DNA from: an uncultured bacterium
Lineage (GTDB): Bacteria > Eisenbacteria > RBG-16-71-46 > CAIMUX01 > WJJG01
DNA length: 54,470 nucleotides
Direction of reading: 5' to 3'
NCBI GenBank assembly: GCA_964388535.1
Contig: CAYMBA010000002.1
Location: 1 to 54,470, forward strand
A program made the position numbers and the translations under genes. Shown in pieces: positions 1 to 41,475 of the stretch (positions are counted from its first letter, which is position 1; each line of letters opens with the position of its first letter). Under the pieces are notes generated by a model. It made no database searches. It was given only the letters and a program-made list of their open reading frames with translations, and was not told the origin of the DNA.

Positions 1-209
1 CCCTTGATCGCATTGGGCTTCATTGTCACTTGCCAACTCGCCCCGCCTCACAGCCTCCGATGGGGTTCGTGTCCCTCAGGTCACAGGTTTGCCTCCGGCT
101 TCCTTCAGACCCCGCCTCACGACGACGCCCTTGCCTTCAGCTAACGGTTGGTGCGATCAACCTCCGTAAGGGTCTTTCACCCTCTAGCCAACGCCCATGC
201 CGGGCGCAC
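1..209 (-). mobile_element. Group II intron (class C-like), 5' end / domain I; the intron continues past the left window edge
   Basis: The reverse complement of 209->1 begins GTGCGCCCGGCATGGGCG, matching the GUGYG 5' splice consensus. It continues with TAGAGGGTGAAAGACCC, GCAAGGGCGTC, TCTGAAGGAAGCCGGAGGCAAACC and TGAGGGACACGAAC. From memory these blocks parallel domain I of bacterial IIC introns such as the Oceanobacillus iheyensis intron. All protein frames here are R/P/S-rich nonsense. Confidence 0.8.
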
Positions 210-247
210 AAGAAAGGCTCCGAGCGTGAGGAGACACGCCCGGAGCC
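210..247 (-). terminator. Intrinsic-terminator-like hairpin immediately 5' of the intron insertion point
   Basis: GGCTCCGAGCGTG (216-228) pairs with CACGCCCGGAGCC (235-247): 12 bp with 1 mismatch and a 6-nt loop. On the minus strand the hairpin is followed by TTTCTTGT and then the intron's first G. Confidence 0.55.
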
Positions 248-281: not shown

Positions 282-642
282 TCGGCTCGCCTTCTTATGT
301 TGCGCCAGGTCAGACCAATGCGCAGTCAAAGGAAGCGGGGGGGCGCGGCGCGCCTCGGGCCTGGCTATGTGCGGCGGATCGTGGTCGAGCTCGCAGCCAG
401 GGCCGACTACGGTCCTGAGCGGCGCCAGTTCGTCTCAACGCGTGCCTTCCGGCACTGGCACGCGCAGCGCCTCATCGACCCGGGGGCGTCGATCCATCAG
501 GTGCACGCGGTGCTGGGGCACACCCGGGCGCAGACGACCAAGGATGTCTGCGCGCCTGAACCTAGCGTGGCAAAGACACTGGATCCCGCGTGCAACCTGC
601 GCGGACCAAGCTATCTCCTTCGCAGCTTCGCTTGTTTGGTAG
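282..642 (+). pseudogene. Tyrosine recombinase (phage-integrase family) C-terminal remnant
   Basis: Frame 3 reads RAFRHWHAQRLIDPGASIHQVHAVLGHTRAQTTKDV, i.e. the HxxRH and LGH boxes. A Cys (TGC 549-551) sits where the catalytic Tyr is expected. The expected continuation RLNLAWQ.. is in another frame. No N-terminal two-thirds is present, because the intron and hairpin lie upstream. Confidence 0.55.
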
Positions 643-3600
643 ACAAGGAAATCCGCTTCTGTTCAAGGTCCACTTTGAGGATCACCACATCAACCTCATC
701 ACCTTTGCTCAACACCTCGCCTATGTCCATCTCGCTCTCATGGACGAGTCCGCTGATACCCTTCCCTAGATCTACGAACGCGCCGAACCGTACAACGTTG
801 GTGACTCTTCCTTGTACTAGATCGCCTTCCTTGTACTTCACAAAGGGTTCATTCTTGGGCACTGCGGGCATACTCAATGCAATCTCTCTCTGCTCCAAAT
901 CCACATCCATTAGCTGTACAACGATCTCATCACCTACTTCTACAGCGTAGCCCCACATCTGGCTCTCATGGAGCAGGCCGGTTATCTGAGGTTCAAGGTC
1001 AACAAACGCCCCATAATTGACAACGTTAGTAACAATACCCTCGCAAACATCTCCTGCTGAGTAGTTTCCGTAATCTGGTCTATCCTCAGGCAACTTCATG
1101 CTGAGTCCAATCTCCTGCTTTTCTGGGTCGACCTTGATCACGACGACTTCAATGGTGTCCCCTACACTGACGACATCTTCGGGATTATCCACCCTGCTCC
1201 AGCTCATTTCACTCTTATGAACAAGCCCTTCAATTCCGGGCATGATCTCGACAAACGCCCCAAAGGGCACAGATCTACGAACCTTTGCGTCTGTAATACG
1301 CGTCCCCACTGGTGGAACTCGCTCATCCCAGGTGGTGTCAACCATTGCTGCTAAGAAGGTATTAGATAGACGGTAAAGATCGTCTATCGCACGGTGATAT
1401 TCTTTGTCCTCTGAGGGCAATTTGAGTTCATTACGCAACTCATACGACATTCGTCCGGAGAAATGAAGTTTTCCGTTTTCCCAAGAAAGCTGTGCGAAGT
1501 TGCGTTGTTTTCCGATCAGAGCCTCAATCTCCTCCGGTAGCCTCGCGCATGAGACGTAAGATGGACCGCGCTTAAACTCCAGCTTCAGGTCGCATATCTC
1601 TCCAATGAAATAATCATCTGGGGGTCTAATGAGACCGCTCCCGGCCACGCTCGCAACATGGACAATGCCTCGATCGGGCTCGTTCCATTCAAGAGTGAGA
1701 TAGACTCTTCCGCGAGAAATCTCACGAACCGTCCCCTTGGCCCTGAGTACACCTTGCTTTCCCTGTTGTCGCATAAGGACGTCGTTCAAATGAGCTTCAA
1801 CGACCGGAAGAATCGAAAGCCGCACCTTTCTTCGTTCCTTGTCGACATTCTCGACTATGGCCTGCAATTCAGCTCCAACTGGGATCTCCCTGACTGCGTA
1901 ACCCCGACCCGAGAAGCTGACCTGGTCTGCGCCGAGTAGCACCTCCGTCCCTGTTTCTGGATCATGGGTCACCAGGGTTACCTGATAATCGCCGGGCCTT
2001 GAGTCGTAGCCTGTCACCACCAGCGACACCGTGTCCCCAATTTGAGGGTTACGCTCAAGAAAAACGTCAATTGATTCTTTCTCGGGCACAGGCGCCAGCA
2101 ACACATGTGGGGAATCAAAGTCGATTACTTCTGCTTCGACAACGTCACCTACTTGGTAGACTAGCTTGGTGTTTGTTAGGAAGCAGGGAGGCTTTGGGCC
2201 AACGACCTCCACGGGCCTGCTCAGGTGAGACGGATCGTTCATCCGTCGGGTGGGCTCCCTTCCGTCATGACCTGTCGCATCAGTTTCAGCATTTTCGACA
2301 GCTTCATAGGTGTCATCGGCCAGAACGACCCACGCGGGTACCGGATCTTCCTCGGGGTTCTCGACGGGAGGCTGCATGTATGCCAGTATAGTATCCGCGA
2401 GATCGCTATCGCCGGCCTCGGCAGCGTCGAGGTCGTATTCAACATCCCCGTCGTCAGGCTCTACCCCAACATAGCCCTCCAGGATTTTGGGAAGTTCTGA
2501 TAGACGCAAGGTTGGTTCGACGGAGATCCGGCCGTCTGACAAGAGATCGACTACTCGGCACTGATAGCGACTTCCAATGGAGAACCTCTGATCTAGGAAC
2601 AACCGATCGTAAGCGTCCCTTTTGAGTAGCTTGCCCGTCTTATCGTTTCGAGTTTGCTTGGCGATGAATCTTCCCAGCTCGACTTGCGAGCGTTTGGTGC
2701 GCCCATCCTCCTCTAGCCATTCAATCCACTCCGGTTGCAGTATTGACAAGTAGCTAACATGGATAACGGGCTCTGGCGGGGCGCTCGGAGACAGACGGTG
2801 GGTGATGACCTGTTGCTTGCAACTCACAAACGCGTCAACGCGCTTGCCGTACAGAACGGAGTCCAGGTTGATCTGAAGTGGCATCTTGGTTTGCTGCTCA
2901 AGCGCCTCACCAGCCAAGCCTAGGCCACGCAGTCCATAGATACAGCTCTCATCAGGCAGATCGCTCACGCTATTGGCGTCACTACTGGGACTGGGGCCAT
3001 TGCAGATTTGCTCTGGGAGGCAGTAGGCAATGAGGATCCGCACACGATCAAGCAATGCGAAGTCAATCGGTCGTATCTCATCATCCTTCTTGTGGCCAGA
3101 GAGTTCCTCTAGGAGCTTGCGCCTTACTGGCTTGACCTTGTCCTTGAAGACGGAGTGGCTAATGTAGTATGCCTTTGCCCAAGCCTCCTGCGCTGCACAA
3201 ACTATCGCGGTCTCCGCTTCTGCTAACCAGTCCCCGGCTACTTCAGCAAGCCCGAACTCCTTCGTGGTGCTCTCAATGTCATCATAGTTGTCGGCGTTCT
3301 CGATCTGGAGTCTGAACTCGGCGAGGGTTTCCTCGTCGACGGCTTCGCCTATCTTATCCATGAGGCGAGCAGCATACTTCTGAACCCACATTTCCCGGAA
3401 TGCCCAGTCGGGATCGATGGGTTGACCATCGTATTGCACCTCAGACCATGCGGTGTATAGCTTGAGGCAGAACTCGAGGTCATCTTGGCAGCCCTGCATC
3501 ATCGCGGCATGGATACGCCCAACGGCTCTCCGCGTTTCGGGGTCCCAGTTCCTGTCCCAACGCAGGAAGCGACGTAGCCCTCCCTGCTTGAGCATTGAGA

Positions 3601-5380
3601 GCAAGGTCGCCATCTCAACTGCACAGGAAAACCGATCAGCAGCAACCATCAAGTTTGCCAATGTTGGCTCATCGGCGAAACGTTGCAACTCGAGACCGAG
3701 TTCTGTCAGATCTCCCTCCTCGTCTAGTGCGCCCTTCTTCTTGAGTATCTCGGGGGCGCGCTCAAGCTCCTCCTCCGGAGGTTTTTGGATCCAGTCAAAT
3801 CCTGCCACGTCATCGATGCCAGCTGCCTTGGCTGTCAAGACAACCTGCTCAAGTCGAGATCGTTGGATTTGCGGGACAGGATACTCGGGGAAGAGACCGT
3901 TGAACTGCTCCTTCGTGTAAAGGCAGTACGCTTCACCATCCATAACCCGGCCAGCCCGCCCCCACCGCTGCCTGCACCCCGCCTGACTCTGCAGGACGGG
4001 GACAACTTGCTTGGTCTGGCTCTTTGGATCCCATTGGTCCTGGTTTATCAGGCCACTATCAACAACGTAGACAATGTCCTCGACGGTAAGCGAGGTCTCT
4101 GCAACGTTTGTGGTAATGACGACACGCCTCATCGACGGATCCGGCTTCTTCAGAAGGGCTTTGTTCTGCTCCTTCTGAGGCAACTTTGTATAAAGGGGGC
4201 AGACGTATACATTGCCCGCGAGCGTTTCGTCTCTTGCCACCTCATTGCGAACAAGAGCTACCGCGGTTTCTATGGGCCTTTCACCATGGAGGAAGGCAAG
4301 AATATCTCCCGGGTTCTTGTTGCCTCTTGCTATCCCATGCAGGAGCCAAATTACTACCTCGGCCACCGCTGTCGCGGCGATATTCCTCATCCTTGGCATG
4401 TCCTCGAACGGATAGGGACGTTGCCCTCCCTCTGAGAGGGAATACTCGTTATCAGTAGGTGGGCCTGACCGCGTGTCATGCAAGTAGAACTCCCGCACCG
4501 TGTAATTCTGCTTCCCTTGCAGCCTGATGTGTCCGGTACGATCACGACCGAAATAGTCAAGGAATAGACCGGCATCAATGGTCGCGCTTGCGATGATCAG
4601 TTTCAGATGGGGATAGCGCGGCAGATGCCTTTTTAGCAACCCCAGAATTAGGTCAATATTGAGACTTCGTTCATGTGCCTCGTCAATCATGATGACACTC
4701 AAATTGCCAATCATGCCGTTCACGATCCAGTTGATTAGCGTGCCATCGGTGACGTAAACTAACTTGTTGCGCCAGTCCGAATAGGGATTATTGCTGTGCC
4801 GGAATCCGATATCGAAACCGGATCCCAAACTTGAACCGTAGAGCTTCTCAGCAACATAAGCGGGAATATTCCGTGTGGCCTGAATTCGTGGCTGCGTCAC
4901 GATAATCTGGCCATGACGTGTGAAAAGATCATCCGGAATACCTTTGGGTAGCTCGGGTGGCATGATCAGCCGAAAGGGCAGAACAGTGGATTTCCCTGAT
5001 CCTGTCGGTCCTTCTACTACAGCAACCTGATGCGCAGGATTGTTGAACCACTCATATAGCCTCCTGACGTCCTCGTCGGTAATCCCGTAATCCTCGGGGT
5101 CGAAACTGGACGGCACATCATGGACATGATGCTCGCGCCGCTCGTGAGATACGGCTCCCAGCCCACCATATCTGATCTGCGTTGTATTAGCTGAAGCAGA
5201 AGGTCTAAGATCAAAGTAGGCAAGCCCCATGGTCTGAGTCTGGCGATTGTGAATCTTCCGACATTCCGCACATCGTTCGGGCCTGGAATGACCACGCGCC
5301 GCGCCCTCTTGGTATGACGAGTCCGAATAGCCGAACTCTTCATTGCAATCCTTGCACCTGACTCTCCATTCCTTCGCCAT
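611..5380 (-). CDS. Large DEAH-box (HrpA/DHX-like) helicase with an N-terminal zinc ribbon and C-terminal S1/OB repeats
   Basis: N-terminus has CKDCN..(x)..CAECRK (CxxC...CxxC). Walker A is GPTGSGKST and motif II is IMIDEAHERS. The C-terminus holds three canonical S1 units (FGAFVEIMPGIEGLVHKSEM, YGAFVDLEPQITGLLHESQM, FGAFVDLGKGISGLVHESEM), preceded by several degenerate OB-like units. Confidence 0.9.
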   Translation of the reverse strand: MAKEWRVRCKDCNEEFGYSDSSYQEGAARGHSRPERCAECRKIHNRQTQTMGLAYFDLRPSASANTTQIRYGGLGAVSHERREHHVHDVPSSFDPEDYGITDEDVRRLYEWFNNPAHQVAVVEGPTGSGKSTVLPFRLIMPPELPKGIPDDLFTRHGQIIVTQPRIQATRNIPAYVAEKLYGSSLGSGFDIGFRHSNNPYSDWRNKLVYVTDGTLINWIVNGMIGNLSVIMIDEAHERSLNIDLILGLLKRHLPRYPHLKLIIASATIDAGLFLDYFGRDRTGHIRLQGKQNYTVREFYLHDTRSGPPTDNEYSLSEGGQRPYPFEDMPRMRNIAATAVAEVVIWLLHGIARGNKNPGDILAFLHGERPIETAVALVRNEVARDETLAGNVYVCPLYTKLPQKEQNKALLKKPDPSMRRVVITTNVAETSLTVEDIVYVVDSGLINQDQWDPKSQTKQVVPVLQSQAGCRQRWGRAGRVMDGEAYCLYTKEQFNGLFPEYPVPQIQRSRLEQVVLTAKAAGIDDVAGFDWIQKPPEEELERAPEILKKKGALDEEGDLTELGLELQRFADEPTLANLMVAADRFSCAVEMATLLSMLKQGGLRRFLRWDRNWDPETRRAVGRIHAAMMQGCQDDLEFCLKLYTAWSEVQYDGQPIDPDWAFREMWVQKYAARLMDKIGEAVDEETLAEFRLQIENADNYDDIESTTKEFGLAEVAGDWLAEAETAIVCAAQEAWAKAYYISHSVFKDKVKPVRRKLLEELSGHKKDDEIRPIDFALLDRVRILIAYCLPEQICNGPSPSSDANSVSDLPDESCIYGLRGLGLAGEALEQQTKMPLQINLDSVLYGKRVDAFVSCKQQVITHRLSPSAPPEPVIHVSYLSILQPEWIEWLEEDGRTKRSQVELGRFIAKQTRNDKTGKLLKRDAYDRLFLDQRFSIGSRYQCRVVDLLSDGRISVEPTLRLSELPKILEGYVGVEPDDGDVEYDLDAAEAGDSDLADTILAYMQPPVENPEEDPVPAWVVLADDTYEAVENAETDATGHDGREPTRRMNDPSHLSRPVEVVGPKPPCFLTNTKLVYQVGDVVEAEVIDFDSPHVLLAPVPEKESIDVFLERNPQIGDTVSLVVTGYDSRPGDYQVTLVTHDPETGTEVLLGADQVSFSGRGYAVREIPVGAELQAIVENVDKERRKVRLSILPVVEAHLNDVLMRQQGKQGVLRAKGTVREISRGRVYLTLEWNEPDRGIVHVASVAGSGLIRPPDDYFIGEICDLKLEFKRGPSYVSCARLPEEIEALIGKQRNFAQLSWENGKLHFSGRMSYELRNELKLPSEDKEYHRAIDDLYRLSNTFLAAMVDTTWDERVPPVGTRITDAKVRRSVPFGAFVEIMPGIEGLVHKSEMSWSRVDNPEDVVSVGDTIEVVVIKVDPEKQEIGLSMKLPEDRPDYGNYSAGDVCEGIVTNVVNYGAFVDLEPQITGLLHESQMWGYAVEVGDEIVVQLMDVDLEQREIALSMPAVPKNEPFVKYKEGDLVQGRVTNVVRFGAFVDLGKGISGLVHESEMDIGEVLSKGDEVDVVILKVDLEQKRISLSTKQAKLRRR

Positions 5381-5399
5381 TGATATCTACCCATAGGAT

Positions 5400-6641
5400 T
5401 CAGTGCCAGGGCTTTCCTGGTCTGTATCCGCCTCTCCTAGTGAAGTAGTATGGGACGACTTCTATTGACGGGGGGCTGTCCGCGCGCCGGATGAGCTCAT
5501 CAACAACAGCTCGATAAAACCCAATCACCGCTGGTTGGAATCCTGTGTGATACAAGAACAATCTTAGGCCGCCCAGCTCTCGCGTCTCTTCCAATTGAGT
5601 TCGGGTCTGCGCATAACAAAACTCATCTGATTCTCCGAGAGTTCGCGTTCTTGAAGCTTCGCGGTTCCGGAACCATGCCATATCGACATCGCGATCCATT
5701 TCTAGGTGCCGCATGCTCATTAATGCCACGCGAAGCGGCATCGTTTCGCGCAGGCTTGTTAAATCGCGCTCAGCGCGCCCTGGCACACAGCGCAAGGGGA
5801 AAGGTCTTCCTTCCGACCCGTCAGTGTATACAACCCGTATGTACAGCGGCGCGATGGTATCTTCGGTGTCTTTATAGATGAATTCACGCAGGACCTCGGT
5901 AATGACATTATGCGGCTGGTTGCTGAAATTCACCGCCGTGAGACGGCCCTCGCGCGACGCCTCAATTGCTTGCTGAACTTGGCTCCGAAGAATGTCGCGA
6001 AGATCTTGTCCCTCGTTATCAAGAAGCTCCTCAGAGTCGGGTTCCACCGTGATCGGGGGGGGGCCAAGTTGTACAGGCACATCCGCTTCACAGGTTGGAG
6101 GATCGGTGTCATCACTAAACATGAACGCATCTCGGATTTCTACAACGCCACAGCCAGAATCACTTGCTAGCTTGAAGAAAGCTAGACGCCTTTGGACATT
6201 GCTGTTCCCCGAACAATGCGCCTCCGCCGCAAGACGCTCGAACGTACTGATATGAGTGTCGATCTCGTCAGGTGTGAAGAATGATTCCCCGACCCGTCCG
6301 GGGCGGTCACTGACGGTTGTCATCGCCGCCAGGACATCCAAGTATCCCGCATCTAGTGCGCTGGCAGGGACCCGGCCCATTTCTAGTGCTGCCATGAATT
6401 CGTCGGCAGCGGATACCGACACCAGAGTTTCTGAGGTTATCGCTGCCTCAATGCGCGCGCAGCACAGATTGTAGTGCGCGCGCTCGTTCTCGGCGTTCAC
6501 ACCCTTCCTAATTCTGCGCTCGATTCCTAGCGCATCGACCACAAAGGGGTGGATACTGATCTTTGCCCCACCCCACTCTACTTCATCCTGCTCCCAAGCT
6601 GCCCGCGGCAGAGCGCAAAGGTAGAACCTTGGCACAATCAT
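5400..6641 (-). CDS. Hypothetical protein (413 aa), no recognisable motif
   Basis: Long ORF in the same orientation as its neighbours. It lies 19 nt upstream of the helicase start and shares a 4-nt overlap with the upstream gene. No motif recognised by eye. Confidence 0.7.
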   Translation of the reverse strand: MIVPRFYLCALPRAAWEQDEVEWGGAKISIHPFVVDALGIERRIRKGVNAENERAHYNLCCARIEAAITSETLVSVSAADEFMAALEMGRVPASALDAGYLDVLAAMTTVSDRPGRVGESFFTPDEIDTHISTFERLAAEAHCSGNSNVQRRLAFFKLASDSGCGVVEIRDAFMFSDDTDPPTCEADVPVQLGPPPITVEPDSEELLDNEGQDLRDILRSQVQQAIEASREGRLTAVNFSNQPHNVITEVLREFIYKDTEDTIAPLYIRVVYTDGSEGRPFPLRCVPGRAERDLTSLRETMPLRVALMSMRHLEMDRDVDMAWFRNREASRTRTLGESDEFCYAQTRTQLEETRELGGLRLFLYHTGFQPAVIGFYRAVVDELIRRADSPPSIEVVPYYFTRRGGYRPGKPWH

Positions 6642-8248
6642 TGACGCATTATCCTGCTTCTGCTGAGTCGCTTGGATGCCTCAATGTCTAGTGAGAACAC
6701 AGTTTCAGGACAAGCGAGAATGCCGACACCGCTGGCGCGGGCAGTCTTGCTTAGCCGTTCCCGATCTTGGACCGGGATTTGATCAAAGTCACGGGGAACA
6801 AGAATGAAGATCTTGTCGCCGGATGCTTCCCGCTGTGCGAGGTCTGCAAGACCAGCTGCAATCTCAAGATCGTCGTGAAGATGCATCCTGAGATCGCTCA
6901 ATTCTCTCGCCCGGATCAATACATAAGCCCTGCTTCCCGGAGTTACGGCCTGGCTAACATGCTCACCGTTCACAAGCCAAGGGATTGGTAGTTCCTCATC
7001 ACACTGATAGATCTTCGCATAATAGGTTTCATCAAACTCGACGTCTAGGCGCCTGACGTCGTCCTCGAGATCGACCGCGGTCTCACCCTCTATCCGTTCA
7101 CGCCTTGCCAGCTTGCGGTCCAGATATCCCCCCATGATGGCCGAGCGGGCATGTGCAACATCATGCATGTAGACGTGACGGTTCTCAGGAACGGCCTCAC
7201 CCCCAAGCGTGCTGTTCGGCCGCCAGCTGCCGAGGATTATTGTCTCAAGCTCTGAATGAGACCAGATGCCGTGATTTACCACGTAACAAGCACGTTCTTG
7301 CGAAAGTACTCCCCGCTCCGACATAGTTATTATGCGCCTGCGAAGACCATCCGGAAACTCTGCAAGCGCCATGAAGAGTTGTCGCGCCTCAGATGGAGTA
7401 ATACGCCCTTCGTTTGCATGACTCAAATCAACTCCCCTTTCGCGAGCGAATTCGCGTAGCGCCGCAGGCACTCTCTTTCCTTCCACATTCTCGGTAAACC
7501 GAATCTCCATGGTGCCCCCGCACTTATAAGCCTCAGACAGGAGAAATGCGCTCGTCATCTTGGCGCCGCTCCCCGGCTCATAATCAGGAACATTCGCTAT
7601 GAGACATACGTCAACTTCAAGGCAGTTATTCACTAGGGAGTGTCGGACCACAACGAGGCCGAGGACGATGTCTTGGACACAGAACCTATATGGACGCCAA
7701 ATGTGGTTTCGGGGGAGCTTTCCTCCGTTGATGTATTCTTCTTCAAACCTCCTCACATGTCCTTCCATTACCCTCAAGCCGTTCCATACTGACAGCTTTC
7801 CATAGAGGTATTCAGCTATATCGGAGCTTATTGGTTCTAGGGCTTGCTCTGCTAGAGGCCTTCCCAGGCTCCAGAGCACCACAGGCGCCGTCGCCGCATC
7901 CGACCCCGCTTCCTGGCATTGAATGCATGCGAGATCTCCTGATGCTTCTAATGGAAAAACCGGGACAAGTTCTACTGGAACATCCGGAGACAAGGCTCGG
8001 AGCCCCGCAAGTGCCCACACTACGGAAGGATCCTTATCCGCGGGAAGGCACAGACCATAGATTGTCTGAGGGCCGATCTTAGCCGCACCGTAGGAGATCA
8101 GGAATTCGCGGTATGAATCGGGGAAACGCAATCCGATTATCCGCTCGACTTCTTCTACTCTCTCCAGCGGCACACCACCGGAGCGGTCCAATTGATCGCC
8201 GAGACCATCTAGCAAACGAAACAGTTTTTCAATTGAAGGGGAGGGCAT
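6638..8248 (-). CDS. SMI1/KNR4 (SUKH-1) domain protein with a large uncharacterised C-terminal region
   Basis: The N-terminus LERVEEVERIIGLRFPDSYREFLISYGAAKIG is typical of the SMI1_KNR4/SUKH fold. The remaining ~380 aa are not recognised. Its stop overlaps the start of 5400-6641. Confidence 0.75.
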   Translation of the reverse strand: MPSPSIEKLFRLLDGLGDQLDRSGGVPLERVEEVERIIGLRFPDSYREFLISYGAAKIGPQTIYGLCLPADKDPSVVWALAGLRALSPDVPVELVPVFPLEASGDLACIQCQEAGSDAATAPVVLWSLGRPLAEQALEPISSDIAEYLYGKLSVWNGLRVMEGHVRRFEEEYINGGKLPRNHIWRPYRFCVQDIVLGLVVVRHSLVNNCLEVDVCLIANVPDYEPGSGAKMTSAFLLSEAYKCGGTMEIRFTENVEGKRVPAALREFARERGVDLSHANEGRITPSEARQLFMALAEFPDGLRRRIITMSERGVLSQERACYVVNHGIWSHSELETIILGSWRPNSTLGGEAVPENRHVYMHDVAHARSAIMGGYLDRKLARRERIEGETAVDLEDDVRRLDVEFDETYYAKIYQCDEELPIPWLVNGEHVSQAVTPGSRAYVLIRARELSDLRMHLHDDLEIAAGLADLAQREASGDKIFILVPRDFDQIPVQDRERLSKTARASGVGILACPETVFSLDIEASKRLSRSRIMRQ

Positions 8249-8327
8249 AGCTTTCCCTTTGGAGACAACGTGCTAGCCGGAGGATCTCCCTGGCCAATTC
8301 ATGAGGGCTGATGAACTCACAAATGGA

Positions 8328-8675
8328 TCACCTTCTTCTCTCGGCGATGCTGAGGGTTATGGCCTCAAATAAAGGTCCAAATGTTTCCGATGCCACATGG
8401 AATACAACGCCAGCGGCAAGTAGACCTGAAACTATAGATGGTCCGCCGTCCCGCACGACTTCGGCAACAGCACTCCGAACCACCTGACTCTGAGACGCAG
8501 TCAGTTGCCTGGGCATCTCGATATGTGCGTCTTGGCGCTGGCGTTCCCCCTCTCTTTCGATCTCTTGGTCTCTAAGGTGTTTGCCCAGTTGCTCGCTGCG
8601 TGAGACGTAGCCAAGGTGGTATGTTACCTGACCCAGATCCTCGGTGGAACAATAGTTTGAGCATGCCATTGTCAA
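8328..8675 (-). CDS. Hypothetical small protein (115 aa)
   Basis: ORF in the lower-G+C block, same strand as neighbours, with a charged middle and hydrophobic C-terminal half. No motif. Confidence 0.4.
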   Translation of the reverse strand: MTMACSNYCSTEDLGQVTYHLGYVSRSEQLGKHLRDQEIEREGERQRQDAHIEMPRQLTASQSQVVRSAVAEVVRDGGPSIVSGLLAAGVVFHVASETFGPLFEAITLSIAERRR

Positions 8676-9434
8676 CCCTCGTGGGACCAGCAGGGAGTAC
8701 CCGAACCCAGATCGTCAACCACCATTTCGTCTATTCGTGAGCGTGAGCTGCATTGTTCAACGATTCTTTGCTGTGGCCAATAACAAGCTGGCCACAATTC
8801 TCCGTGATGCCAGTTCCTTAGAAAGTGAAGAGCTCCGGCCCCGCCACAATAAAGTGGTCGCTTGCGTCAATTAGCACGCCTAGCGCCATCACTTCCCAGA
8901 GACCCCCTCTCGATTCTTCCTTTCAAGCTAAGGACTAAGTCCTGTCCATCATACAATCAAACGATAACGTGCTCAAACGCTCCTTGCCGATGCGTGCATT
9001 TGCCGAAAGTTGGCAGATCGGCCCTGAAGCATCGTGTAGCCCGTTTCCTTCCACTAGGATGGATGAGAACGATAACAAGTGTCATGTCCAAAGAGGAAGG
9101 CGAGCAATCTAGAGACCTGTCGTCTCAACGCTGTGCCGCGCCCTACGCATCTGGGTGCCTTTAGTCCGATCCCATCAAGTGAGATAGATCCACCAGGAAC
9201 GCTGGCCTCTGTCGATCCTTTTGGCCGCTTAGAAGAAGCTCCATCGATAACCGCTGGCCATCTCCAGCGTCGCTGCAAAGCCAGCCACATCTTTGGCCCC
9301 GTGCGCTTGCCGACATCGCACAGCACAAACCGCGTTGCGAGCTGTCGCTACAGGAATTCCACTCCAGCGGCACCACCCTTTGCTCAAGTGCCCCCAAGTC
9401 ATGGCGAAGCCCCAAACATAGACGATGTCCCGCC

Positions 9435-10586
9435 TCATTCCGCGGGTCTCGCTCGCACCCGCTCCACTTGGAAGCTCTCCTTGAGGGGGACGAGCTCCCC
9501 TTCAGGCTCGAGGTAGAAACGGCCCCCATACAACTGGTGTCTCCACTCCACTTCAGATGGTCCATGCCGGTTCTTCTCGATCGCAAGTCGCACAAACCGG
9601 GCTCGGCCATCTTCACCCACCGGCTTCAAGCATTCATGATTCAGCACCCATCCCCCGTCCGGCTCGTATGTCATGCTCACGGGGCCCCACAGGTCCTCCA
9701 AGTGCACCGGCCCCCTACGCCTCACCGCTTGCTCATCCACCGCGCCAACCGCAACCACGGGCACGCCCCGCCGCATGGCCAGCGCCTTGAGTGACCGCAC
9801 CACATAGTCGATGTGCTGCTCTCGCGCCAGGTCTGCGAGCTCCGCCGGCGGCGGCACACGCTGAGCGTAATCGACGATCACAACCGGATAGAGCCCTTTC
9901 CGCTGCAGCACTACTACCATCTTATCGATCGCTTCGGGGGACGTGTAGATCGGATCGCCCCGATACAGGTACAGCGCATCGAGATACTTCTCCATCTTCC
10001 GCCAGCCGAGAAGCGCCGATCTGGGCAGCTGTAGCAACATCGAGGACAGATCCTCCAGTGCGCCCGCCTCAGCCAGCCGCGCCAAGGCCCCCCGAATATC
10101 GCTCAGGTTGACGCCCCCTTCACCGCCCCCCGCCAGCCAGGACTCCATGCACAGCAGCCGTTGCTGCAGCAGGATCGGAGAATGTTCGTAGCAGATCAGC
10201 AGGCAGACCACCCTATTCCGCGCCTGGGCTGCCCATAAAGTTATATTTCGGCCCAGCTGACTCACAAAGAGCGTCTTACCGATGTTCTGCTTTCCAACCA
10301 CCAGCACCAGATCCTCGGCGTGCAGGCCGCCACCCATACTTGCATCCAGGAAAGGGAACCCTGTCGGGATCGGCCGCAGGACCGCCGGGTTAAGGTCAGG
10401 CAGTCTCCTCTCAAAGGCCTCCACGGTCGCCCGCAACGATACCGGAGGCCCGGTCCCGCCCGGGAAATGGATCGTGCTCTCGTAGCCGTCGTCAAAGCGG
10501 TTCACGAAACCCCCTGCCCTCCGCCCTGGAACCAGAGGCTGGCCCATCGACCACAAGCCGATAGCCGCGCGCATGCGCTGTCTCAA
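9435..10586 (-). CDS. DnaB-C-terminal/RecA-fold ATPase (DnaB-like helicase); start uncertain
   Basis: LVLVVGKQNIGKTLFVSQL is a Walker A in DnaB-like context and VVIVDYAQRV is a Walker B as in DnaB LIVIDYLQL. The annotated start overlaps the upstream gene by 95 nt. Alternative starts are ATG 10547 and GTG 10505. Confidence 0.75.
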   Translation of the reverse strand: MRQRMRAAIGLWSMGQPLVPGRRAGGFVNRFDDGYESTIHFPGGTGPPVSLRATVEAFERRLPDLNPAVLRPIPTGFPFLDASMGGGLHAEDLVLVVGKQNIGKTLFVSQLGRNITLWAAQARNRVVCLLICYEHSPILLQQRLLCMESWLAGGGEGGVNLSDIRGALARLAEAGALEDLSSMLLQLPRSALLGWRKMEKYLDALYLYRGDPIYTSPEAIDKMVVVLQRKGLYPVVIVDYAQRVPPPAELADLAREQHIDYVVRSLKALAMRRGVPVVAVGAVDEQAVRRRGPVHLEDLWGPVSMTYEPDGGWVLNHECLKPVGEDGRARFVRLAIEKNRHGPSEVEWRHQLYGGRFYLEPEGELVPLKESFQVERVRARPAE

Positions 10587-11292
10587 TGCCCGCCCCTAGG
10601 CGAGCCTCCGCGAACTTCTGCCGGAGACGGTTGATGTGTTTGCGAACGGCGCTCTGCTTCGCCTCCTCGCCGAACACCCGCCGTGCAATCGAGGGGATTG
10701 CCTTCCACTCATCCGCCGGCGGGTCCATCAGCACGGCGAGGATCAGCGCCTGCTTCCGGGTCAGCGCCACTTTGGAGCTCCGAACCCGCAGCGTCCGGCC
10801 GGCGACGTCCAGCACTGCATCGCCCGTGCGCCGAAAGCGCGAAGTGATCCGTCCCAGAGCGGCCAGCTGCGCCCTTGCGAAGCGAGCCGCCACGCCTGGC
10901 GGCACCTCCCGCTTGCTCAGGTATGCGACGGCCCCAACCCGAGCCGCCTCCTCAAGACCTTTCCTTGCCGACGCCCGACCCGTCATCACCATGATCGGCG
11001 CCGCGGTCGCCTCCCACAGCCACGGGAGGAGCTCCAACCCCCTGCCCTCGCGCTCAAGCTTTGTCCCCACCATTACCAGATCGGGCTGGAGCGCGACGGC
11101 CCGCTCCAATCCCTCGCCGGAGCCCGAGACACTCTCGACCCGTACGCCCTTCGCCTCCAGCTCCGCCGCAAGCCTGTCGCGATAGGCGACGTCCGGGTCC
11201 ACGATCAGAACCAATGGCGGCGGCACCCTCGATGCGCCCTCGTCTTCGGCCACCCTGACCTCCCCCGGCACGAAAGGCCGATCGCCTGTCAC
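10492..11292 (-). CDS. OmpR/PhoB-type response regulator paralogue with a degenerate (Asp-less) receiver
   Basis: Receiver is LVLIVDPD...QPDLVMVGTKL...IMVMTGR...AYLSKRE and the winged helix is RKHINRLRQKF...AHARGYRLVV. The likely start is GTG 11292, forming a GTGA overlap with the stop of the upstream regulator. The ORF-track start at 11388 lies inside the upstream gene. Confidence 0.8.
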   Translation of the reverse strand: MTGDRPFVPGEVRVAEDEGASRVPPPLVLIVDPDVAYRDRLAAELEAKGVRVESVSGSGEGLERAVALQPDLVMVGTKLEREGRGLELLPWLWEATAAPIMVMTGRASARKGLEEAARVGAVAYLSKREVPPGVAARFARAQLAALGRITSRFRRTGDAVLDVAGRTLRVRSSKVALTRKQALILAVLMDPPADEWKAIPSIARRVFGEEAKQSAVRKHINRLRQKFAEARLGAGIETAHARGYRLVVDGPASGSRAEGRGFREPL

Positions 11293-12032
11293 GTGCCCTT
11301 GCCCCGTGCGTCCTGCGCCTCCTCGGAGGTGTCCTTTACGCCCTCGACCACCAGGCGGTATCCGTGCGCGTGCGCCGTCTCGATCCACACACCCATGTCC
11401 AGCGACTCCAGCCTGGAGCGGATGCGCGCAATGTGCTTGCGTACCCCGGCCTTCTCGTTGTATCCGGTGTCGCCGTATACCTTCCTGGCGATCTCGGCAT
11501 GCGTCTTCCAGTGCCCTGCTGGCGGGGTCATCAGCGCGGCCAGGATCTCCGCCTGCATCTCCGTCAGCGGGACGGGTATGCCCCGGATCAGCAGCTTCCG
11601 CGCCTGGACATCCAGGACCACGCTCCCTAGGCGAAGCGACGTGTACGTCAACTTGCCGAGCCTGGCCAACTGGCTGCGCACAAAAGCGCTCAGCGCCGCC
11701 GGAAGCGCGTCGGCCTTGTTGAAGTAATGCGTCGCCCCTCCCTCCCCCGCCGCCTCCAGGTCTTCCCGAACCGACCCCCTGCCCGTCAGCACCACGATGG
11801 AGGCGGCCGTCGCCTGCTGCAAGCGCGGCAGCAATTCGAATCCCTCGCCTTCCCTCTGCAAATTGATGTCCAGGATGATCATATCCGGCCTCTGCTGGAC
11901 GGCTTTCTGGTACCCCTCCTCCGCGAAGAAGGCCGTCGAGGCGCGCAGCCCATCCCGCTCGAAGGTTTCCGCCAGCGACGCCGAGAACGCGGCGTCATCA
12001 TCAATGATCAGGACCAGGGGCTTGTTCGGCAT
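11289..12032 (-). CDS. OmpR/PhoB-type response regulator
   Basis: LVLIIDDD...RPDMIILDINL...IVVLTGR...HYFNKAD is a complete receiver signature. The C-terminal winged helix is RKHIARIRSRL...AHAHGYRLVV. Confidence 0.85.
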   Translation of the reverse strand: MPNKPLVLIIDDDAAFSASLAETFERDGLRASTAFFAEEGYQKAVQQRPDMIILDINLQREGEGFELLPRLQQATAASIVVLTGRGSVREDLEAAGEGGATHYFNKADALPAALSAFVRSQLARLGKLTYTSLRLGSVVLDVQARKLLIRGIPVPLTEMQAEILAALMTPPAGHWKTHAEIARKVYGDTGYNEKAGVRKHIARIRSRLESLDMGVWIETAHAHGYRLVVEGVKDTSEEAQDARGKGT

Positions 12033-12048
12033 GTCGATCCCCCTCCCT

Positions 12049-13275
12049 CTACCTCTCCCACATCACAGCAGGCTCCAGCATCTGTCGCGCGACGGTCACC
12101 GCCGCCGGCAGATCTCCTGTCAGCCCGCCCCGTTCGGCCAGCTCCTCTGCAAGCCGCCGGAGCATCCCCACTAGCAGCTTTCGCTGCCCGGGATCCAGAC
12201 CGCCCGCCACCACCCGGACGCTTTCAGCCACGGCCTGCGCCCGGTTCGAGAGTCCGGGGGCCAGCGCCTCCAGTGCATCCAGGCCCCCGGGATTGAAGCA
12301 CCGCGCCCTCATCGCGCAGACCTCGCAGCGACTAAGGTCCGCCAGGAACATCGGCAGGTACACCCCCTCCTGGATGCCGCGCAGCGCAGTCTCTAATACG
12401 TGAGTCAACCGCCCACCGGCCACCATGCGCCTCCCGTGCGTCCATCCGGAGGGGATGTGCCGGTACGTCACACCCGTCACCTCTCCAAAGGCGATCGTGC
12501 TCTCTGGCAGGGGTTCCATGTGCAGGGCCGCGATTACCCTCAGGTCCCGGCTCACCATCCTCGCCGACGGCGTTCGCGCCAGATCGTAGTCGTGCACCTC
12601 CACCAACACCGAATGCGGGGTATTCTCCGGCTCGTCCATGACCAGCATGTCCGCCCTCGCAGGCAGGACCCAGCCCCCCACCCTCACCTGAACGGGAACC
12701 TGAATACCAAGGATCGCAGGATTCGCTGGCGCCTCGCCGGGGGCGGCAAGCCGCTCGGCCATGCGCAGGCTGTCCGCAAACGCGTCCGCTACGCTGTACG
12801 GGCCGAACAGCGGATGGTCGACTTGCTCCACCCGCAGCGCGGCCATCAGCTTTCGATCCAGCTCCTTGGCAAGCGCGGGAAGCCCGCTTGAGCGGGCCAT
12901 GCCCTTGAACTTGCGCGACATGCGCGGCTGCTTGTAGCGGGATCCGTCGCGCTTGCGGATCTTGCCCGATTGGAAGCCTTCCAGGATATGGGAAAGCGCC
13001 TGAGCGTAGCCTGCCAGGCCCTTGAGCACGTCATCCTCGTCCGCGCCCTCACGCGCCAGCCAGGTCCGCCAGACGACCATCACCGCTTCCTGCAGGCCAG
13101 CCTCCTGGCGACGGGCGTACACCCGCCACGCCTGGCGCAGGGAATCACCGGGGAGCTCAAGCGTTGTCCGGGGCGCCCACTCCCCCCGCAGCCCCACCAC
13201 ATGCTTCCAGTAGTAGAGCATGGAGCAGAATACGTAGTCCCGTAACTGTTCAAGCGACACTGGCGACAAAGGCAT
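12049..13275 (-). CDS. PD-(D/E)XK-superfamily, Cas4/RecB-like nuclease with a four-Cys (Fe-S type) signature
   Basis: An N-terminal Cys (YVFCSMLYYW) plus C-terminal CEVCAMRARC gives C...CxxCx5C, as in Cas4/AddB/Dna2. The candidate core is RADMLVM...LVEVHDY, in which the usual Lys is not obvious. Confidence 0.55.
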   Translation of the reverse strand: MPLSPVSLEQLRDYVFCSMLYYWKHVVGLRGEWAPRTTLELPGDSLRQAWRVYARRQEAGLQEAVMVVWRTWLAREGADEDDVLKGLAGYAQALSHILEGFQSGKIRKRDGSRYKQPRMSRKFKGMARSSGLPALAKELDRKLMAALRVEQVDHPLFGPYSVADAFADSLRMAERLAAPGEAPANPAILGIQVPVQVRVGGWVLPARADMLVMDEPENTPHSVLVEVHDYDLARTPSARMVSRDLRVIAALHMEPLPESTIAFGEVTGVTYRHIPSGWTHGRRMVAGGRLTHVLETALRGIQEGVYLPMFLADLSRCEVCAMRARCFNPGGLDALEALAPGLSNRAQAVAESVRVVAGGLDPGQRKLLVGMLRRLAEELAERGGLTGDLPAAVTVARQMLEPAVMWER

Positions 13276-13290
13276 ATCCGATCGCCCTCT

Positions 13291-14721
13291 TCAGTCGGCG
13301 CGCACCTGCACCTGCCCGGGATCCAGGAGCGCCGGCGAAGTGGCGAAGCCGAGATAGAACGTGCTGCCTACTCCGACCTCTGACTCGACCCTGAGGGTCC
13401 CGCCCATCGCCTCGAGCAGGCGACGCGTCACCCACAGCCCGATCCCCTCGCCCTTCACCCCGGCACTTCGTCCGGCCCTGAACCGGTACGACCCGATCCG
13501 AGGCAGCTCCTCGGCAGGCATTCCAGGGCCGGTGTCCGAAACGGCGAAGATGACTTGGTCGCCCTCGAGGTAGGCCCGTACGCGCACCGCACCCTCCTGC
13601 GTGTATTTGAAAGCGTTATGCAGCACGTTGGAGAGTACCCGGAAGAAGGCCACTCGGTCCGCCTGGATGTGCGGCAGGTCCTCCGGGATCTCGGTCTCCA
13701 GCACTAGATCCGGCCTCCGCCGGGCTCGCAGAGACAGGAACGGCCGAACCACCTGTTCGAAGAGCTCTCCCGGGCGATGCGATTCGACCGTCACCAGGGG
13801 TGACCTGCCCTCCGCCATGTCGACCAGCGAATCGCCCGACCGAGCGACGGTGGCCACCAGCTGAATCGTCCGGTAGAGCTCCGCCAGGTCCGCCTCTGAG
13901 GCCTTCCCCGGCCTATCCGAGGACGCCGTCGTCTCCCAGGCGCGCAACAGGACGGCCTCAAGCGAGCCGAGGGTGTTGCCCAGATCGTGTTGGAAGGATC
14001 CGAGGAGCATCTTCAGCAGGCCGTCTTTGACCCGCGCCTCCTCCAGCAGCTGCTCCATCAGCTCGGCCTGGGCAAAGCGGACGGTCACGGCCTCGACCAC
14101 CCGCGGAAAGTGCTGCACGGCGGCCTCCACTGCCTCCATGTTGAACCGGTCGAGGCGCTTTACTCGGGGGACATGCAGGATGATCAGTCCCGCCGTCGGA
14201 CCGCGTTCCCCGCCGCGCTTCATCCTCAGCCGGACAGCGAGCATCCTCCCGCGCCTTGCTTGGGGAAAGACCTTATGGAACGCTTTCGGCATCCTCCCAG
14301 CGGGCAGCTGCAGCAGGTCTCGCTCCCCCTCCCCCGTCGCAAGCGCGGCGAACTCCCCTACAGCCAATGTCGCGGCGAGCATCTCCTGATCCGCGCGTCC
14401 CTGCAATGTGCCTCCGGAGGCCGCCACGTGTAATTCCGCGCTCTCAAAACCCTCGCCTGGAACGCGGATGAGCGCCAGCCTCCCCCGCGCCCCTACCCCT
14501 TCGGCCAACGCCCCTGTCATACCCTGCACGGCCGCCTCGATGTTCGGCGCCGCCGACAACCTCAGGACCGCCTCCGGTAGATTGCGCCAGCGCCGCAGAC
14601 GGCTCATGGCGGCCGCCTCCCCCACCCTCACCGCGGCGACCACCTGAACGGTCAGGAACAGCGCACCCAGCAGAACCAGGATCCCCAGGGGCACAAGCAA
14701 GCTATTCAGGATCTCGCTCAT
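13291..14721 (-). CDS. Sensor histidine kinase (one N-terminal TM helix, cytoplasmic sensor region, HisKA + HATPase_c)
   Basis: H-box is SFQHDLGNTLGSL, N-box is NVLHNAFKYT, G1 is DTGPGMP and G2 is GEGIGLWVTRRL. The N-terminus LLVPLGILVLLGALFLTVQVVAA is hydrophobic. Confidence 0.9.
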   Translation of the reverse strand: MSEILNSLLVPLGILVLLGALFLTVQVVAAVRVGEAAAMSRLRRWRNLPEAVLRLSAAPNIEAAVQGMTGALAEGVGARGRLALIRVPGEGFESAELHVAASGGTLQGRADQEMLAATLAVGEFAALATGEGERDLLQLPAGRMPKAFHKVFPQARRGRMLAVRLRMKRGGERGPTAGLIILHVPRVKRLDRFNMEAVEAAVQHFPRVVEAVTVRFAQAELMEQLLEEARVKDGLLKMLLGSFQHDLGNTLGSLEAVLLRAWETTASSDRPGKASEADLAELYRTIQLVATVARSGDSLVDMAEGRSPLVTVESHRPGELFEQVVRPFLSLRARRRPDLVLETEIPEDLPHIQADRVAFFRVLSNVLHNAFKYTQEGAVRVRAYLEGDQVIFAVSDTGPGMPAEELPRIGSYRFRAGRSAGVKGEGIGLWVTRRLLEAMGGTLRVESEVGVGSTFYLGFATSPALLDPGQVQVRAD

Positions 14722-14869
14722 ACCTCTTCTGTCTCGCTACATAGCATCTCGTCGCTCAATCATTATCGGCCGGATCATGCGTTTTTCACAGCCACCCCCG
14801 CCATCTTCTATCACCTTGCCGGTTGCTGCGCGCTCTCAGTACCAACCCTGGTCGCGCTGCGCATCGGCA

Positions 14870-16606: not shown

Positions 16607-16611
16607 AGGCG

Positions 16612-19629: not shown

Positions 19630-19640
19630 CTGCCAGAACC

Positions 19641-20366: not shown

Positions 20367-20375
20367 CCATCCCTC

Positions 20376-37173: not shown

Positions 37174-37488
37174 CGACAAGGACAAATCAATGGGCAGGGA
37201 TAGCGGTTGGAGTGGCGAGGCCAGCACGATAATACTGTCCCCAAGAATGGGTGAGCGCGCGACGGGCGCAAGTGGAGAATGTCCGAATTAGCCGAAGACG
37301 CAGGGCGAGGATTAGAAACTGGCGAATCCGATGATCGCATAATTCGCGGTTCAGAAGGTCTCTGCAACGCATAATAAAGTGCGCGTGCGGATGAAAACCG
37401 GCGATAACTGGCGCAGGGCGCTCAACAAGGAAGGGCACATGATCAAAAAAGAGTTAGCCAGCGATAGTCCTGTAGTTCTCATCTACTC

Positions 37489-38751: not shown

Positions 38752-38819
38752 TCGCTGGCTACCGATGAGTTGGAAAGTCACGACCCAATCCGAGATTCAT
38801 CGCGAATATAGTGAATAGC

Positions 38820-38852
38820 AGCACACGCCCTGCCCACCGCAGGGTGTGTGCT
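38820..38852. other. 13-bp GC-rich hairpin after the pentapeptide gene
   Basis: AGCACACGCCCTG (38820-38832) pairs with CAGGGTGTGTGCT (38840-38852), with one G-T pair and a 7-nt loop. No T-run follows. Confidence 0.5.
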
Positions 38853-38904
38853 TAGGCGGAGGGATGTTGGTGTTTATTCAGTTGCGACAGGACCTGGATC
38901 AGTC

Positions 38905-40513: not shown

Positions 40514-40544
40514 CATAGCTCGAGGGCGTTATGCGGAGTAGCCT

Positions 40545-41423: not shown

Positions 41424-41475
41424 CAACAGCATGCAGCGGACGGCTATACGCCGCCGCTGATGCTGAGCGTTAGCC
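41418..41475 (+). other. attC-like recombination site 1 (58 bp)
   Basis: GCATAAC (41418-41424) ... GTTAGCC (41469-41475). The arms pair as CAGCAT/ATGCTG, CAGCGG/CCGCTG and CGGC/GCCG around the loop TATAC. Unpaired G41433 and A41440 occur only on the inverse-core arm. Confidence 0.65.

Follow-up and report, generated by a model that had tools for sequence, protein, structure and literature searches.

What is a giant RNA-helicase-like protein doing in a short run of genes on what looks like a conjugative element? The question is raised by contig CAYMBA010000002.1 of an uncultured bacterium, whose first 54,470 nucleotides were analysed as one stretch, termed here the window. In the initial annotation, an operon of three genes, lower in G+C (guanine plus cytosine) than its surroundings, was recognised near one end of this window. 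The analysis described below gives the unit a fourth gene. It suggests that the locus could well be a mobile four-gene conflict cassette, of the immune or abortive-infection type, that travels as low-G+C cargo on a conjugative element. It probably represents an immune or addiction module that senses RNA and is so far undescribed.

A recurrent four-gene cassette

The unit consists of the following genes, which are referred to as D, A, B and C in their order of reading:

8328..8669, minus strand: gene D, a putative variable effector of 113 amino acids, the first of four co-directional genes
6638..8248, minus strand: gene A, a proposed adaptor of 536 amino acids (SUKH domain and conserved core)
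5400..6641, minus strand: gene B, a two-domain protein of 413 amino acids
611..5380, minus strand: gene C, a DEAH/RHA helicase of 1589 amino acids with an RNA-binding tail

A and B overlap by 4 nucleotides, B and C are separated by 19 nucleotides, and D ends 79 nucleotides before A. The tight coupling of A, B and C as minus-strand open reading frames had already been noted in the initial annotation and is seen again here. The extent given there was too short, as the fourth co-directional gene at 8328-8669 was missed; the full unit is D-A-B-C, at 611-8669. Its G+C content is 0.537, against 0.646 at 9435-35000 and 0.637 at 47000-54470, so the earlier remark that it lies visibly below the backbone also stands.

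A profile of B was used to scan one genome per species (185,579 species), which yielded 66 loci. The window proteins A, B and C served as tblastn queries to read the order of the neighbours. In about 57 of the 66 loci, the three genes are collinear with those of the window and share one strand; the loci that depart from this are truncated contigs and a reduced form found in Ktedonobacterales. The carriers belong to more than ten phyla. They include Chloroflexota, Planctomycetota (anammox bacteria among them), Verrucomicrobiota, Thermodesulfobacteriota, Alphaproteobacteria, Acidobacteriota, Gemmatimonadota, Bacteroidota and Actinomycetota (Streptomyces, Nocardia, Rhodococcus, Sinomonas), as well as a Methanomicrobiales archaeon. 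Co-occurrence elsewhere, on which the initial annotation had let its reading stand or fall, is thus found across these phyla and on plasmids, and the return of the same order in about 57 other loci means that the gene set is not a product of chance.

The coupling recurs as well. The 4-nucleotide overlap of A and B is kept in 43 of 58 loci, and the B-C junctions measure -4 or about +10 to +20 nucleotides. In some proteins, the genes are joined outright: P0266 consists of the A core and B (E 9e-48 to B), P0351 of SUKH, A core and B, and P0265 of a D-type N-terminus ('MGCNRLTTQRELEHI'), a coiled coil and the A core. All-against-all clustering of 834 open reading frames from the flanks revealed no further universally conserved neighbour, only lineage-specific extras. 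In a profile search of 1.84 billion representatives, the A core family came to 441 clusters at 50% identity, which makes it a rare and patchy family. A correlation of identities among A, B and C was also tried; it proved uninformative, as the aligned segments differ.

Several variants of the cassette were observed. Four Ktedonobacterales loci (L019, L020, L030 and L036) carry the reduced form, in which only the C-terminal half of B (about 209 amino acids) is followed by a protein of about 1,070-1,100 amino acids matching C from residue ~565, with no RecA motor and no A gene. In Desulfobacterota and anammox bacteria, an extra gene for about 740 amino acids comes after C (L013 12402-14624, L014 16105-18348, L031 13008-15215, L022 6541-8769 and L015 8055-9776). 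Its product clusters with C-type proteins and not with the window C, and the helicases of these groups bear an insertion of about 90 residues after residue 412. One locus, L077 (= L016, Candidatus Loosdrechtia), looks decayed at 7838-13786, where gaps of 500 and 240 nucleotides separate A, B and C. Its C is called as a product of 784 amino acids without a Pfam match, and its flanks hold transposases, dynamin-like GTPases and a type III CRISPR (clustered regularly interspaced short palindromic repeats) module.

The four products

In about 45 loci, a co-directional gene directly 5' of A encodes a protein of 75-390 amino acids that starts with M-[G/A/S]-C; in two loci the start is MPxGC, with the Cys at residue 5. 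When these first-gene products are aligned on the Cys, it is present in 43 of 43, and the [G/A/S]-Cys pair falls within residues 2-5 in all of them. The residue before the Cys is G in 21 products, A in another 20 and S in the remaining 2. Position +5 is often T or S, and position +8 is often D or E. The tag is 12-15 residues long. The starts are identical in the gene calls of the Prokaryotic Genome Annotation Pipeline (PGAP), the Joint Genome Institute (JGI) and NCBI, including those with GTG and TTG initiators.

The bodies behind this tag fall into at least 18 unrelated BLAST clusters. Among them are a 15-locus family with 'EAD…IDxK' motifs, repeat proteins, and small proteins, that of the window included, with a hydrophobic helix at the end. 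Some bodies match UPF0102/YraN-like PD-(D/E)xK proteins (E 3e-3 and 2e-2), AHH/HNH-like proteins (E 7e-3) or DUF2380 (E 9e-9). The class of the tag tracks the tree of the A core and not the body of D; one body family occurs with three tags, and one tag with at least eight bodies. Such a pattern is the signature of a recruitment peptide that is matched to conserved machinery and serves interchangeable toxins.

In the window, the D product starts 'MACSNYCS…' (tag 'MACSNYCSTEDL', sequence 'MACSNYCSTEDLGQVTY…'). Several features show that the gene is real: a ribosome-binding site, GAGGG, lies 6 nucleotides before the ATG; its G+C content of 0.538 is that of the cassette; its C-terminus forms a hydrophobic helix (peak hydropathy 1.58 at residues 79-97); it is 36% identical (E 6e-15) to a JGI-called gene 5' of A in the L072 cassette of Anaerolineae ('MGCSNFCTSENLGQLTY…'); and L075 carries a similar gene, 'MACSNYCSKK…'. 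D of the window belongs to the M-[G/A/S]-C class and may be regarded as a variable, toxin-like effector of putative toxicity. It was also observed that the copy on a Streptomyces plasmid, L071, has a tagged gene, 'MGCQNHGD…', unlike the chromosomal loci of Streptomyces.

No signal peptide precedes the Cys of the D proteins, there being no room for one before residue 3 (or residue 5 in the two cases mentioned). Two other interpretations of the tag were considered. A reading of 'MGC' as an N-myristoylation-type site is weakened by the MAC, MSC and MPxGC variants. A zinc clasp between the Cys of D and three Cys of A was dropped, as conservation above 90% in 200 cores of A is reached by Cys321 alone.

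Two parts can be distinguished in A:

7805..8170, minus strand: SUKH/SMI1 domain, residues 27-148 (Pfam SUKH_6/5/SMI1, E 6e-9)
6641..7783, minus strand: conserved core, residues 156-536, without a Pfam family

The SUKH fold is also seen in the model of A, for which Foldseek returns 2icg (Lin2918) and 2prv (YobK) at E 1e-6 to 1e-5. A SUKH/SMI1 domain fused to some 380 residues of unmatched sequence had been described in the initial annotation, and both halves of that description agree with the Pfam results. The domain does not define the protein, being one of several interchangeable N-modules. Among 30 members examined with Pfam, the N-terminal module is SUKH in 18, TsiV in 3 and YbjN/type III secretion chaperone-like in 1, or is absent. 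TsiV provides immunity to VRR-NUC toxins. The N-module also evolves faster than the core: its pairwise identity averages 0.29, that of the core 0.48.

The core of A has a basic 'GKLPRNHxWRPYRF' segment and three domains: a beta/alpha domain that is weakly GNAT-like (~176-283), a helical one (285-381) and a C-terminal alpha/beta one (395-536). It also has a conserved 'SRIxRQ' tail. None of the 30 members has a Pfam family in this region, and in a profile search of the PDB only the SUKH domain of A found relatives. In the AlphaFold model of A (mean predicted local distance difference test score, pLDDT, 86.6), residues ~176-283 have many GNAT structures among their Foldseek matches, which are weak (E 0.03-0.4) and cover only about 80-140 columns. 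No conserved Q/R-x-x-G-x-G/A acyl-CoA loop was found in A; S227-G228-A229 is semi-conserved in close relatives and lost among 200 cores. For the C-terminal alpha/beta domain, Foldseek gives nuclease-like matches at noise level. The residues conserved over 200 diverse cores are mostly Arg, Asp, Glu and Trp. Only one Cys (C321) is among them, together with the R535 tail at the C-terminus, and no known catalytic motif is recognisable. In one protein of 952 amino acids, P0310, a STAND/NB-ARC-like P-loop region at the N-terminus precedes, in the same chain, the C-terminal two-thirds of an A core, which links the family to architectures like those of NLR (nucleotide-binding leucine-rich-repeat) proteins.

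The middle protein, B, had been described as having no recognisable motif. That holds for Pfam, NCBIfam and PADLOC, none of which gives a match to its 413 residues, and none of its more than 135 homologues has a Pfam family. It does not hold for the predicted fold, which is weakly SAVED/CARF-like. The AlphaFold model (pLDDT 86.3) shows two alpha/beta halves with a disordered linker between them. The motifs YxDGS, SMRHxxMD, WxRN and TGxxPAVxGFYR are invariant. Many invariant polar residues, those of these motifs, lie at strand ends in the C-terminal half, an arrangement that resembles a ligand pocket or active site. Its best fold neighbours in the PDB are almost all SAVED or CARF proteins, namely Cap5 and Cap4, then Cam1, a ring nuclease and Csm6. 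The Foldseek statistics are weak (probability 0.9-0.97, E 8e-3 to ~1e-2, template-modelling (TM) score 0.26-0.31). Thirty members gave no match to the profiles of Pfam or PADLOC, SAVED/CARF included, with the threshold relaxed to E<=1, and no PDB profile match was obtained. A SAVED/CARF-like sensor is a lead for B, and no assignment is made.

An internal duplication in B found no support, as hhalign of the two halves gave a probability of 0.2. One phage protein of 132 amino acids from Siphoviridae sp. ctTC45 (BFVD A0A8S5LQX9) resembles one domain of B (Foldseek E 1e-5, 26% identity, target TM 0.59), and it could be a phage decoy or counter-measure.

The largest product, C, combines a motor with RNA-binding modules:

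5261..5356, minus strand: N-terminal CxxC…CxxC zinc-ribbon, residues 9-40 (read from the sequence; weak zf_Tbcl match)
3359..5035, minus strand: DEAH/RHA motor with winged-helix/HA2, residues 116-674 (partial NCBIfam HrpA/HrpB matches)
1511..2173, minus strand: cryptic S1-like repeats in the middle of C, about residues 1070-1290, bounds approximate (family profile)
626..1303, minus strand: three canonical S1 domains, residues 1360-1585 (Pfam S1, E 1e-57, three stretches)

In most loci C aligns from residue 1. Motifs I (GPTGSGKST), II (DEAH), III (SAT) and VI (QRWGRAGR) are intact; of 55 family members, 51 retain DEAH and 51 retain motif VI. The nearest solved relatives are Prp22, DHX8, Prp43 and HrpA (E 1e-70 to 1e-54), over residues 116-674 only. 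The NCBIfam HrpA/HrpB matches (TIGR01967, TIGR01970) are likewise partial, aligning residues 116-598 only, and C stays below the equivalog cut-offs: 247.6 bits against 722.75 for TIGR01967, 216.8 against 1400 for PRK11131 and 203.9 against 546 for HrpB. The helicase is therefore not an orthologue of the housekeeping HrpA/HrpB, an outcome that the initial annotation had named as decisive. Its further description of an RNA-helicase-type motor with multiple S1 domains agrees with the motifs and the three Pfam domains. C very likely works as a 3'-5' RNA translocase, as do helicases of the Prp22/HrpA type.

The tail of C holds more S1 units than Pfam reports. A profile of the middle region, built from six family members, matches ribosomal protein bS1 in three stretches (E 1e-9), and the three C-terminal units match bS1 chains at E 1e-65. 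Three Pfam domains and three stretches in the middle make about six S1 units, as in bS1. Relatives of C carry KH domains in addition to S1, or instead of it. Since the array is fused to a helicase and swapped for KH in relatives, it is to be seen as a generic tail for the capture of single-stranded RNA and not as a ribosomal subunit; the binding of such RNA is predicted to be the constant feature of the C tails.

Mobile setting and surroundings of the cassette

The backbone of the window resembles a conjugative element, with a Replic_Relax protein, a TrwB/DUF87 ATPase, a DnaG-type primase, a DnaB_C/KaiC-like ATPase and an IS110 transposase. Relatives of the cassette are found on two plasmids, the conjugative plasmid pB of Paenarthrobacter ureafaciens and a linear plasmid of Streptomyces, where their genes bear no annotation beyond 'hypothetical protein', 'S1 RNA-binding domain-containing protein' and 'helicase-related protein'. 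Cultivable carriers include Paenarthrobacter ureafaciens, with the cassette at 10984-20500 of plasmid pB, NZ_CP094491; Streptomyces sp. NBC_00637, with it at 126455-134464 of plasmid NZ_CP109047; and Rhodococcus sp. KRD162. One relative adjoins a Tn7-like TnsA/TniB/TniQ set, and another lies inside an integrative and conjugative element (ICE) with TraC-like and Prim-Pol genes. The G+C step, the conjugative backbone and the plasmid, Tn7-like and defence-island contexts of the relatives together argue for horizontal acquisition, as had been proposed in the initial annotation. In searches against phages, B found no relatives in phage genomes, its profile found none in IMG/VR, and A and B had no match in PHROGs. 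Megablast of 24 kb of the window against plasmids gave no match, and look-ups by exact sequence returned no record of the proteins of the window itself.

Defence genes adjoin several of the relatives. They include a DISARM-like helicase-kinase with an N6 methyltransferase and a HEPN giant, type III CRISPR, ScoMcrA-SRA with Fic, a type II nicking endonuclease, restriction-modification genes, JetD and CARF nucleases. On the question of a defence-island setting, raised in the initial annotation, such neighbours occur at several loci, and other loci lie among ordinary metabolic genes.

The remaining features lie around the cassette:

8948..8976, minus strand: candidate promoter-like site TTGAGC-17-TATGAT, 5' of gene D (consensus scan)
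372-557, plus strand: C-terminal remnant of a tyrosine recombinase, 'FRHWHAQRL…LGHTRAQTTKDV', which converges on the 3' end of the helicase gene
216..247, minus strand: terminator-like hairpin with a 13-bp stem, 10 G-C pairs and a T-tract, about 360 nucleotides past the stop codon of C (consensus match)
1-126, minus strand: 5' part of a group II intron, cut by the window edge (RF02001, 85.5 bits)

The promoter-like site is a candidate only, as such sites are not above shuffled expectation in this region. The recombinase remnant has Cys at the position of the catalytic Tyr and a G+C content of 0.66. As this matches the backbone, the remnant may be no part of the low-G+C insert. Intron and integrase remnant, just downstream of the operon, had been read as the mark of a horizontally acquired island; both are present. 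The intron part starts about 90 nucleotides past the terminator-like hairpin, which recalls introns that home beside terminators. No tRNA was found in the window.

The backbone at 9435-19797 and 53250-54431 also holds a histidine kinase and two tandem OmpR-type response regulators with overlapping reading frames. A protein of 408 amino acids at 12049-13275 has no Pfam match and a C-terminal Cys cluster. A second low-G+C block lies at 36000-47000, its G+C of 0.536 matching that of the cassette. It encodes an IS110-family transposase (38905-40149) as well as a protein of pentapeptide repeats (37489-38751), and it may have been inserted separately, from a donor like that of the cassette.

Function, rival readings and known systems

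How might such a cassette work? In the mechanism proposed here, C would be an active DEAH/RHA helicase, whose zinc-ribbon and S1/KH array would let it load on and scan single-stranded RNA. B would be a SAVED/CARF-like regulatory subunit that binds a ligand or an RNA end in its invariant polar pocket. A would act as the hub: its core would bind B and the N-terminal [G/A]-Cys tag of the D proteins, and its exchangeable immunity-type N-domain, SUKH in this case, would keep the toxin silent or sense a protein of the invader. D would be the exchangeable toxin, a small membrane-active protein here and a PD-(D/E)xK or HNH/AHH nuclease elsewhere. On meeting foreign or aberrant RNA, C would trigger an ATP-driven remodelling of A-B-C that frees or activates D. 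The freed D would then halt the cell or destroy the invader, with an anti-phage or anti-plasmid outcome. The sequences themselves show the set of genes with its order and coupling, the fusions, the modular build, the SUKH, DEAH and S1 identities and the patchy distribution on mobile DNA; RNA sensing as the trigger, the part of B as sensor, the docking of the tag on A, the release of the toxin and the outcome are inferred.

The role of the tag can be pictured in more than one way. Its acylation is one idea, to which the gasdermin-like Cys and the weak GNAT-like match in A lead; docking of the tag and a covalent tether to Cys321 of A are equally open. It is possible, if only tentatively held, that the cassette stands for a new class of prokaryotic immunity, in which a DHX-family helicase surveys RNA via its bS1-like tail and controls tag-recruited, interchangeable toxins through A and a SAVED-like B. 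The tag might then be an S-acylation handle or the covalent tether to Cys321.

A conflict system of this kind fits the data much better than a housekeeping paralogue of HrpA because of the fixed, coupled set with its fusions, the hypervariable toxin slot, the exchangeable immunity domains, the patchy spread across domains of life and the carriage on mobile elements. Certain observations weigh on the other side. About a quarter of the loci have no recognisable D gene, including chromosomes of Streptomyces and Nocardia and some Chloroflexaceae; no M-[GAS]-C gene was found 5' of A in L035, L037, L038, L042 and L048 of the former or in L010 and L012 of the latter, and in such loci the effector may lie elsewhere or have been lost. 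For a SAVED-like fold of B, the structural evidence is weak and support from sequence is lacking, and the cassette holds no nucleotide cyclase. The GNAT-like match in A is weak and comes without the conserved acyl-CoA motif. The flanks are heterogeneous, with several loci among ordinary metabolic genes. No hidden Markov model of a known defence system matched A, B or C, so the assignment to immunity rests on architecture and context.

Other functions can be imagined for the same genes. The cassette may be an addiction or stabilisation module, that is, a complex toxin-antitoxin (TA) system which keeps plasmids and ICEs in the cell and does not stop phages. D would be the toxin, the N-domain and core of A would neutralise it, and B and C would tune this neutralisation to the state of RNA or translation. 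The window cassette and several relatives do reside on conjugative plasmids, ICEs and Tn7-like elements, the layout of a toxin beside an immunity domain fits, and the cassette was not found in phage genomes or IMG/VR. However, simple addiction would come at a very high cost if it took a helicase of 1,600-2,100 amino acids and its RNA-binding array, and many loci are chromosomal and beside defence genes. This account is regarded as unlikely. It also overlaps the conflict cassette favoured here, since many TA systems act against phages too. If the conjugative setting is given still more weight, the genes may be thought to help such elements establish themselves against RNA-based immunity of the recipient, through the removal of guide RNAs or signalling nucleotides, with B as a nucleotide sponge or nuclease. 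The SAVED/CARF-like fold of B, the 132-residue phage protein that resembles one of its domains and the type III CRISPR neighbours of some loci would suit this counter-defence role. Yet an anti-defence module would not be expected to include variable nuclease and membrane toxins, many copies lie on chromosomes and outside leading regions, and homology to known anti-CBASS (cyclic-oligonucleotide-based antiphage signalling system) or anti-CRISPR proteins is lacking. This is the least credible of the readings.

The toxin-like first gene can also be taken in another direction, that of interbacterial competition. D would be exported, its Cys motif being a signal for lipidation or export, the SUKH domain of A would be the cognate immunity, and B and C would be accessory. 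SUKH, TsiV and AHH or restriction-endonuclease toxins are indeed classic partners in polymorphic-toxin systems, and [GAS]-Cys resembles the -1/+1 positions of a lipobox. A signal-peptide h-region is missing before a Cys at residue 3, though, and no RHS, LXG, CdiA or secretion-system genes are conserved nearby. The same SUKH cluster is found with at least 15 unrelated D bodies, a core-only A still comes with a tagged D, and in the fusion P0265 the exported toxin would be joined to a protein of the cytoplasm. Such an exported toxin is improbable. A role in RNA metabolism or ribosome rescue, with C as a specialised HrpA paralogue aided by two cofactors and no conflict involved, appears slightly more doubtful again. 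The kinship of the motor with Prp22, DHX8, Prp43 and HrpA, the mRNA or ribosome binding suggested by a bS1-like tail and the housekeeping neighbours at some loci speak for it. On the other hand, C scores far below the HrpA/HrpB cut-offs, occurs in only 66 of 185,579 species scattered over phyla and domains, shows a G+C anomaly and mobile carriage, and is linked to a hypervariable toxin-like gene and immunity-type domains.

If the cassette is an immune system, it would be the first one built around a DEAH/RHA RNA helicase. It would extend RNA-level surveillance in prokaryotes beyond CRISPR types III and VI and tie bacterial immunity to the helicase family of eukaryotic splicing and of the antiviral DHX proteins. 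One short Cys tag, common to at least 18 unrelated toxin bodies and tracking the lineage of the adaptor, suggests a portable recruitment signal, which could serve as a tool. Should the new-class reading be true, this would amount to plug-and-play loading of effectors, which is not described for any defence system. The A core, with its roughly 440 clusters, and B, both without Pfam or NCBIfam annotation and with generic RefSeq names ('hypothetical'), gain a functional context.

The composition of the cassette had been called undescribed in the initial annotation, and the searches bear this out. A, B and C, the three products scanned, matched none of 5,027 PADLOC-DB v2.0.0 models at E<=0.1 (Mokosh, Hachiman, Druantia, Azaca, Shango and PDC included); 30 members of the B family gave nothing meaningful against PADLOC at E<=1; and full-text searches of the literature found no description of the set. 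The cassette belongs to a known kind, that of helicase-centred, effector-swapping, defence-like cassettes. What is not described is the combination of a DEAH/RHA helicase bearing a bS1-like tail, two unannotated families and an N-terminal Cys tag on the effectors, and there is a substantial chance that the mechanism is new.

The individual parts can be compared with better-known proteins. C shares with HrpA/HrpB, Prp22, DHX8 and Prp43 the RecA1/RecA2 motor (GSGKS, DEAH, SAT, QRxGRAGR) and the winged-helix/HA2 region. It differs from HrpA in its N-terminal zinc-ribbon, a family-specific middle of 400 amino acids, and a tail of about six S1 units, or of KH domains, where HrpA has its own C-terminal region. 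HrpA and HrpB are broadly distributed, vertically inherited and stand alone on chromosomes, whereas C is rare, follows A and B in most of its loci and is also plasmid-borne. The roughly six S1 folds of the oligonucleotide-binding (OB) type are found likewise in bS1, but in C they are fused to a helicase and can be replaced by KH. The model of B has two Rossmann-like halves, with invariant polar loops at strand ends as in ligand pockets, and its best structural matches, weak as they are, are the SAVED proteins of CBASS (Cap4, Cap5) and the CARF proteins of type III CRISPR (Csm6, Cam1, ring nucleases). B has no sequence or profile similarity to these sensors and no fused effector, and its TM is only about 0.3; with only D, A, B and C conserved, the cassette has no CD-NTase or Cas10.

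With immunity proteins of the SUKH/SMI1 and TsiV type (e.g., YobK-YobL), A shares a true SUKH domain, in place of which relatives carry TsiV or YbjN. As in polymorphic-toxin pairs, the gene directly 5' in relatives encodes an AHH/HNH-like or PD-(D/E)xK-like protein. In contrast to such pairs, the immunity-type domain is fused to a core of 380 amino acids and coupled to a helicase, and the small D proteins, with their short Cys tag, have no trafficking or secretion domains and no RHS, LXG or CdiA. One-to-one co-variation of toxin and immunity is not seen either, given the many bodies per SUKH cluster and the core-only A proteins with a tagged D. In bacterial gasdermins, a palmitoyl thioester on the N-terminal Cys3/Cys4 is needed for toxicity (10.1101/2021.06.07.447441). 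The D proteins have their conserved Cys similarly at residue 3-4; they are not gasdermins, and their tag runs on for 12-15 residues and co-varies with A. Finally, Mokosh, Hachiman and Druantia follow the same logic as the cassette: they lie on islands and mobile elements and couple a large helicase of SF1/SF2 to an effector that is a nuclease or otherwise toxic. The cassette differs from all three in having a DEAH/RHA helicase with S1/KH domains, two extra conserved subunits and an interchangeable, tagged effector.

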